From assembly GCF_036321535.1 (NCBI RefSeq), contig NC_087436.1, forward strand, positions 82,896,001 through 82,960,000: a stretch of DNA of 64,000 bases. The letters run 5' to 3'. Below, one piece after another: positions 56,257-56,798 of this stretch. Below the pieces are notes generated by a model. The model was not told the DNA's origin and ran no database searches. It saw only the letters and a program-made list of their open reading frames with translations. The DNA comes from Camelus dromedarius (taxonomy: Eukaryota). A program made the position numbers and the translations under genes. Every line of letters starts with the position of its first letter. The first letter of the stretch is position 1.

Positions 56257-56353
56257 TCTGTGTATCCCTTCCCTCTCTTTTACAGCTCTTCAAATTCATC
56301 AGCTTTAATAGGACCACGAGTCAGCTCTCCACAACCATGTCTCCACGTGCCAA
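56257..56353 (+). pseudogene. Partial duplicate of the PKD2 intron 7 acceptor and exon 8 5' end (pseudo-exon or candidate alternative last exon)
   Basis: Matches 56795-56889: intronic part identical except a 2-nt indel; 61 of 68 exonic nt identical. Confidence 0.9.
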
Positions 56354-56356
56354 GTC

Positions 56357-56798
56357 ATTTTTCTCCTCTTTCATTTTCTTTTTGTTGTGAAATATACTTA
56401 ATAAAATTTGCCATTGTAACCACTTTTAAGTGTATGATTCAGTGGCTTTAAGTCCCTTCACAGTGTTGTGCAACCATCCCCGACTGTGCATTTCCAGAAC
56501 TTTTTCATCATCCAGCTGCAACCTTTTTATCCATTAAACACTAACTCCCCATTTACCCCTCCCCACAACCCCTGGTAACCTCTGTTCTCCCTTCTGTCTC
56601 TGAATTAACCCACGCTGGGTACCTCATATAAGTGGAATTGTGCAATATTTGTCTTTTTGTGTCTGGCTTCTTTAACTTAGCAGTGTGTTCAGGGTTCATT
56701 CGTGCTGTAGCATGAGTGAGAATTTCGTTCCTTTATAGGCCTGAGTAATGAATGTTTCACCGTGTGTATTTACCACCCTTCATGTGCCCATTCATCTG
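56357..56798 (-). mobile_element. Antisense LINE-1 3' UTR fragment lying between the two exon 8 copies
   Basis: T-rich tail, then aaatttgccattgtaaccacttttaagtgta...ccagaactttttcatcatcc...ctggcttctttaacttagca...ccattcatct; similar to 25690-26065. Confidence 0.85.

Follow-up and report, generated by a model that had tools for sequence, protein, structure and literature searches.

Structure of the PKD2 exon 8 region

The window, a stretch of 64,000 nucleotides of the Camelus dromedarius genome (contig NC_087436.1), carries PKD2 on its plus strand. Translation of exons 1 to 10, of which exons 2 to 10 were positioned by length and frame, was identical to Camelus polycystin-2 (P0138) at 708 of 708 residues. 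Intron 7, which precedes the working exon 8, spans 2481 bp in the window; the length given for human PKD2 intron 7 in the accessible part of a study of exon skipping is 3927 bp (PMC11355194). At the 3′ end of the camel intron, positions 56257-56354 form a direct repeat with 56795-56890, copying the acceptor and the first 23 codons of exon 8 in frame. On the plus strand, the first repeat arm is followed by a 33-nt T-rich tract, the L1 body and the second repeat arm (Table 1).

Table 1. Positions of the features in and around the duplicated exon 8 start of camel PKD2
Feature	Position in window	Strand	Remarks
PKD2 exon 7	54173..54340	+	Phase-0 donor at 54340
A12 run upstream of the orphan acceptor	56222..56233	+	Risk of internal priming in 3′-seq
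Upstream copy of the exon 8 acceptor, left arm of the direct repeat	56257..56285	+	No T-n-A branch candidate from -80 to -12
Upstream copy of exon 8 codons 1-23	56286..56354	+	N6S, M11T, R20P, C21R
T-rich tract, read as a possible decayed L1 poly(A) tail	56355..56387	-	33 nt; 67% T and 88% pyrimidine on +
5′-truncated L1 3′ end (tip of ORF2 and 3′ UTR)	56380..56799	-, antisense to PKD2	High-copy repeat; siblings extend into ORF2
TGA that ends the read-through frame, within the L1 3′ end	56388..56390	+	
AATAAA	56400..56405	+	Created by a gap of 2 nt in the alignment to sibling L1s; at the same place in 1/29 siblings
ATTAAA, common to the L1 family	56533..56538	+	Present within the first 250 nt of 23/29 siblings
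Working exon 8 acceptor, right arm of the repeat	56795..56821	+	Begins at the L1 truncation point; 3-5 nt of microhomology
Working PKD2 exon 8	56822..57003	+	60/60 residues identical to human polycystin-2 573-632

The upstream copy of the exon 8 start

Over 87 nt (56257-56343 compared with 56795-56879), the upstream copy was 94% identical to the real acceptor and exon 8, with an E value of 7e-33 within the window. Among the 11 further nucleotides that bring the copy to 56354, 6 matched the right arm. Within the exon part, the copy first departs from the working exon at 56302. The acceptor of the upstream copy ends in TTTTACAG at 56285. The duplicated exon start had been recognized in an earlier, sequence-only reading; the duplication is real, and it includes 29 nt of acceptor beyond what had been described. 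The acceptor end at 56285, the phase 0 of exon 7, the translation of 56286-56390 and the TGA at 56388-56390 had all been placed exactly in that reading, and the AATAAA that it reported at 56400-56405 is present. It assigned S1 to S4 to exons 1 to 7; by the usual helix limits, S4 ends in exon 8 rather than in exon 7. A genome search found no third copy of the acceptor and exon 8 start.

Short direct repeats can be mis-assembled, and on these general grounds the duplication might be an artefact. However, the arms differ from one another at eight sites and a gap. Further, the stretch 56286-56430 was present in 20 sequencing-run rows from 11 studies, carrying two organism labels and spanning the join between copy and tail, and at least half of the 12 words were found in 19 of the 20 rows. 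Thus, the DNA is real and not the product of an assembly error, for which we see almost no chance.

The L1 fragment between the arms

The two copies are separated by approximately 440 nt of antisense L1 3′ end, an element that had gone unnoticed in the earlier reading. The segment 56380-56799 is a 5′-truncated antisense L1 3′ end, probably of the L1M type. The genome contains 5168 candidate copies of this fragment; among the 40 that were scored, the best was 78% identical, and a close donor of the insert was not among them. Longer sibling copies continue into L1 ORF2 (L014, E 1e-15; L026, E 1e-8) and match ORF2p in 8UW3 and others, and the copy in the window translates on the minus strand to a similar ORF2 tip.

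Two self loci and five repeated entries for loci already included were removed, which left a set of 29 siblings. The L1 in the window differed from the column majority of this set at 55 of 354 positions (15.5%), and the siblings themselves by 8.0-16.1%. These siblings had been selected for their similarity to the query, and more than one subfamily may be represented in the majority. The 33-nt tract is more pyrimidine-rich than the tail of all 29 siblings.

Junctions of the insertion

The T-rich tail follows the left arm directly, and the first base past the L1 match is also the first of the right arm. This match ends at 56797-56799, where the junction sequence TCT is common to the column majority and TCTGT is found in 6 of the 29 siblings. 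The locus displays three features of L1 insertion by TPRT with target-site duplication: a poly(A)-like tail, 5′ truncation with microhomology and a direct repeat that abuts both ends. The T-rich tract may be the decayed poly(A) tail of the L1, with an alternative origin from the pyrimidine tract being possible. A flanking repeat of at least 30 nt was found for none of the 29 siblings within 1.5-kb flanks.

No TTTT/AA-like endonuclease motif was present at the inferred boundary at 56890, the nearest 4/6 matches lying at 56919-56931; age may have erased the motif. A longer repeat reaching 56931, which would bring in such a motif, was considered and rejected (p 0.35). No mammalian outgroup DNA for the locus was found among the loci retrieved (80 kept of 83). 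The best kept locus, L037, was 77% identical in exon 8 without likeness in the intron, and the other 79 showed 59-82% protein identity.

Divergence of the arms and of the L1

The arms differ at 8 of 96 nt and by one 2-nt gap. The corresponding divergence within the L1 family is 13-15.5%, and a neutrally evolving arm of the same age as the L1 would differ this little with P 0.11 to 0.03. Over the first 85 nt there are only three differences (P 0.003 to 0.0005); within the acceptor, 27 nt are free of substitutions. The split of 3/85 versus 5/11 yielded a Fisher probability of 0.0004 at a boundary that was chosen after looking. Third-position differences, four over approximately 14 synonymous sites, fit the age of the L1. 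At three of these four, the upstream arm agrees with L037, a distant vertebrate sequence that is likely saturated. Nonsynonymous change in the upstream copy amounted to 4/55, below the 15.5% of the L1. The excess similarity of the arms could be accounted for by gene conversion between arms 536 bp apart, by constraint on the upstream acceptor or by a later duplication. The substitution N6S was rejected as a dating marker: serine recurs here in 26 of the 104 proteins, and asparagine is found in cattle, whales and camel.

Splicing and polyadenylation signals

The polypyrimidine tract of the upstream copy is as strong as that of the real acceptor, with 18 of 20 pyrimidines. By contrast, no branch-like T-n-A motif lies at -80 to -12 of the upstream copy, whereas at least two are found at 8 of 8 real acceptors, a count that comes from a motif scan only, real branch points sometimes being degenerate. 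The same scan confirmed the lack of a branch point that had been conceded earlier. The working acceptor has seven branch candidates, all of them at -28 or further and inside the L1, so that the branch point used for exon 8 may come from the L1. The only donor scoring above 0 before exon 8, at 56574, has a score of 1.4 (real donors, 1.4-5.1), is out of frame and lies past the stop.

The AATAAA at 56400 is located 115 nt downstream of the upstream acceptor. The U/GU-rich sequence reported to follow it was recovered, with T or G at 25 of 41 nt in 56425-56465. No UGUA was found upstream of the signal. The frequency of AATAAA in PKD2 is about 5% per 60 nt. The fold predicted for 56200-56460 was weak (z -1.7); within it, at 56220-56252, pairing is possible between the A12 run and the T-rich tract that precedes the orphan acceptor. 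Among the 20 run rows that hold the duplicated stretch, 13 are guessed to be RNA, 1 is recorded as RNA and 6 are of unstated type; the 13 guessed rows, X13 and X14 (5/12 words) are uninformative on splicing.

The predicted peptide

Splicing of exon 7 to the upstream copy would yield a product of 574 + 34 = 608 residues, which, by the helix limits assumed here, would end after the S4-S5 linker. Its 11-residue hydrophobic tail comes from reading through the T-rich tract on the plus strand, and everything past codon 23 is L1-related. The proposal of a new hydrophobic tail holds insofar as the tail is in frame and hydrophobic. However, 93% of shuffles of the T-rich tract remained open, and 36% of the open ones were as hydrophobic. 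Since a T-rich tract gives both properties by default, neither the open frame nor the hydrophobicity carries signal. In addition, a membrane helix requires more than 11 residues.

Residues M11, R20 and C21 of exon 8 were invariant in 104 of 104 polycystin-2 proteins with a recognizable exon 8 start, from 120 examined, and all three are changed in the upstream copy. The diagnostic residues and tail of the copy were found in 0 of 189 fetched proteins. The copy-plus-tail peptide had no match among proteins of 73-2000 aa (18 candidates, with PKD2 itself not returned) or of 22-72 aa. The protein comparison took in 40 of 122 clusters, with 15 listed.

Other departures from the usual exon 8 junction were seen in the fetched proteins. 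In 4 of the 142 polycystin-2 proteins with the exon 7 end motif (P0001, P0021, P0022 and P0024), exon 7 is followed directly by exon 10. All four are from pig or toothed whales, which may hint at a weaker exon 8 acceptor in this group or may reflect annotation depth. A pangolin model (P0055) enters exon 8 at codon 15, just before which the camel exon has an AG; this could represent a cryptic acceptor or an error of the model.

Origin of the duplication

The arrangement suggests that PKD2 exon 8 received, past approximately codon 23, an L1 that inserted by retrotransposition in antisense orientation, with a second nick approximately 98 bp upstream, inside the polypyrimidine tract. The resulting target-site duplication would have placed the AG, 27 nt of the tract and the start of the exon beyond the 5′-truncated L1. 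The downstream copy, complete with its donor, would now serve as exon 8, with a branch point probably derived from the L1. The upstream copy would be the original start, left without a donor or recognizable branch point, and would decay as a mostly silent pseudo-exon at which leaky splicing or polyadenylation is possible. We give this account as a whole, comprising an exonic L1 insertion, a duplication of about 98 bp that rebuilt the exon start and a mostly silent orphan, about an even chance. Its core, a one-step origin by L1 insertion with target-site duplication, we judge to be slightly favored.

Two observations stand against a single event: the endonuclease motif is absent at 56890, and the arms look younger than the L1. 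Both are consistent with two separate events, in which a template switch, an unequal crossover or a tandem duplication followed by deletion copied the acceptor and exon start locally, and the L1 arrived by ordinary insertion with a short duplication that has since eroded; the copy would still be a near-silent pseudo-exon. The 33-nt tail also resembles the upstream tract of pyrimidines, with 17 matches in 21 aligned columns and a single 2-nt gap, but this likeness is not significant (p 0.07-0.15) and does not establish the tract as the source of the tail. Moreover, both arms closely meet both ends of the L1, a fit that independent events would need chance to produce, and the window holds no second close copy of the fragment. 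A two-event origin is possible, though we consider it doubtful.

Possible use of the upstream copy

The sequence-only reading had interpreted the upstream copy as an alternative last exon that encodes a pore-less polycystin-2. An acceptor, a stop and a poly(A) signal are indeed present. However, the tail, stop and AATAAA derive from the antisense L1 and its T-rich tail, there are no branch candidates, invariant residues have been lost and the tail is absent from the fetched proteins. The copy might still be used at a low level as a leaky last exon without selected function, which would be compatible with an origin by L1 insertion. The strength of the tract and the canonical AATAAA downstream argue for such use, as does the presence of the stretch in 14 run rows guessed or recorded as RNA. 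Against it, the acceptor lacks a branch candidate and the signal an upstream UGUA, and the RNA rows may contain intron or DNA, only 1 of the 20 being recorded as RNA. We regard leaky use as a tentative proposition.

A selected, regulated last exon would give a stable 608-residue polycystin-2 without S5, pore, S6, EF-hand and coiled coil, which could tune PKD2 dose or act as a dominant negative. The unsubstituted acceptor, the low level of nonsynonymous change and the rarity of AATAAA among the siblings and in the gene are in its favor, and the second organism label (X10) has 9/12 words. Conversion between the arms would also keep the acceptors alike, however, and the three changed invariant residues, the default hydrophobicity of the tail and its insufficient length for a membrane helix argue against selection. 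The protein was also not found among the fetched proteins or in the peptide searches, all of which are weak tests. Collectively, these findings make a selected isoform improbable.

As described in the accessible text of PMC2568912, C-terminally cut polycystin-2 that retains the N-terminal domain still binds full-length polycystin-2, and L224X is dominant negative. The dominant-negative consequence suggested for the truncated subunit is thus plausible, as N-terminal fragments could act in this way; the same property would equally give selection cause to silence the copy, and a regulated dominant-negative isoform in the camel is unlikely. We consider very unlikely the full sequence in which the L1 broke an exon of dosage-sensitive PKD2, was repaired by its own duplication of approximately 98 bp and supplied the branch point, and the orphan now acts in camelids as a conserved, used last exon controlling the dose of polycystin-2. 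Of the two stories, that of the evolutionary origin is the stronger; the pore-less isoform is hypothetical.

Relation to known systems

In the accessible part of the report by Servant et al. (PMC5223499), L1 target-site duplications longer than 100 bp constituted at most 10% of HeLa insertions, with most events occurring in repair-deficient cells, and the authors note that long L1 duplications can duplicate exons. The usual genomic L1 duplications peak at 14-16 bp in the available portion of a survey that examined 5-30 bp (PMC2912911). The camel locus shares with the insertions of Servant et al. a 5′-truncated L1 with a tail, a direct repeat near 100 bp and the predicted exon duplication. Theirs arose de novo in cultured cells, whereas the camel locus is an old germline case in a coding exon, with a boundary that lacks the endonuclease motif.

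As in the antisense intronic L1 exonization and premature polyadenylation described in the accessible text of Zemojtel et al. (PMC2176070), an antisense L1 3′ end supplies a pyrimidine tract, a stop and a possible last exon. In the camel, however, the acceptor is the host's own duplicated acceptor and not an L1 site, and the transcript is hypothetical. Intronic-polyadenylation and alternative last exon isoforms, in the available descriptions, similarly have an acceptor, an in-frame stop and an AAUAAA inside an intron, but they are defined by 3′-end and junction reads, whereas the camel copy is a candidate read from sequence. The truncated polycystin-2 forms L224X, L703X and R742X (PMC2568912) keep the N-terminal oligomerization region, as would the hypothetical 608-residue camel form; none of the constructs in the accessible text ends after the S4-S5 linker at 608 aa. 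Loss of the human exon 8 acceptor, the same acceptor as that duplicated here, results in skipping of exons 8 and 9 (PMC11355194); the RT-PCR design in the available part of that study is blind to a terminal exon and is therefore silent on a human duplicate.

Long L1 duplications, antisense-L1 exonization (PMC2176070) and intronic polyadenylation are known already, as far as the accessible parts of these sources extend. No report of a PKD2 exon 8 duplicate, or of an exon restored by an L1 duplication, was found in the literature searched, which lay mostly outside subscription journals. If the one-step origin is true, the camel locus would be a natural germline case of the exon-copying long duplication so far proposed from cell culture, in which the long duplication lets an L1 survive inside a PKD2 coding exon. 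It would also illustrate how insertions into exons can come to be tolerated and how introns can lengthen. Other genomes could be searched for the same pattern, an L1 flanked by acceptor-plus-exon repeats. The truncated-channel idea, if true, would matter for PKD2 dosage biology; its transcript is hypothetical.

Other features of the window

The last coding exon of SPP1 (osteopontin) lies at 3085-3555 (Pfam PF00865). Several nested L1 fragments were observed on the plus strand at 9170-14850, and an ORF2-like piece at 10368-10595 was not named by Pfam. A further antisense copy of the same L1 3′ end, 69% identical, is located in intron 1 at 25714-26025. A dispersed repeat at 56110-56203, just upstream of the orphan acceptor and with 21 other matches, is presumably an L2 end. 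Three tRNA-like SINE copies are present at 50580-50648, 57784-57873 and 63883-63968; one pair of these differs at 7 of 69 nt and is thus younger than the L1.
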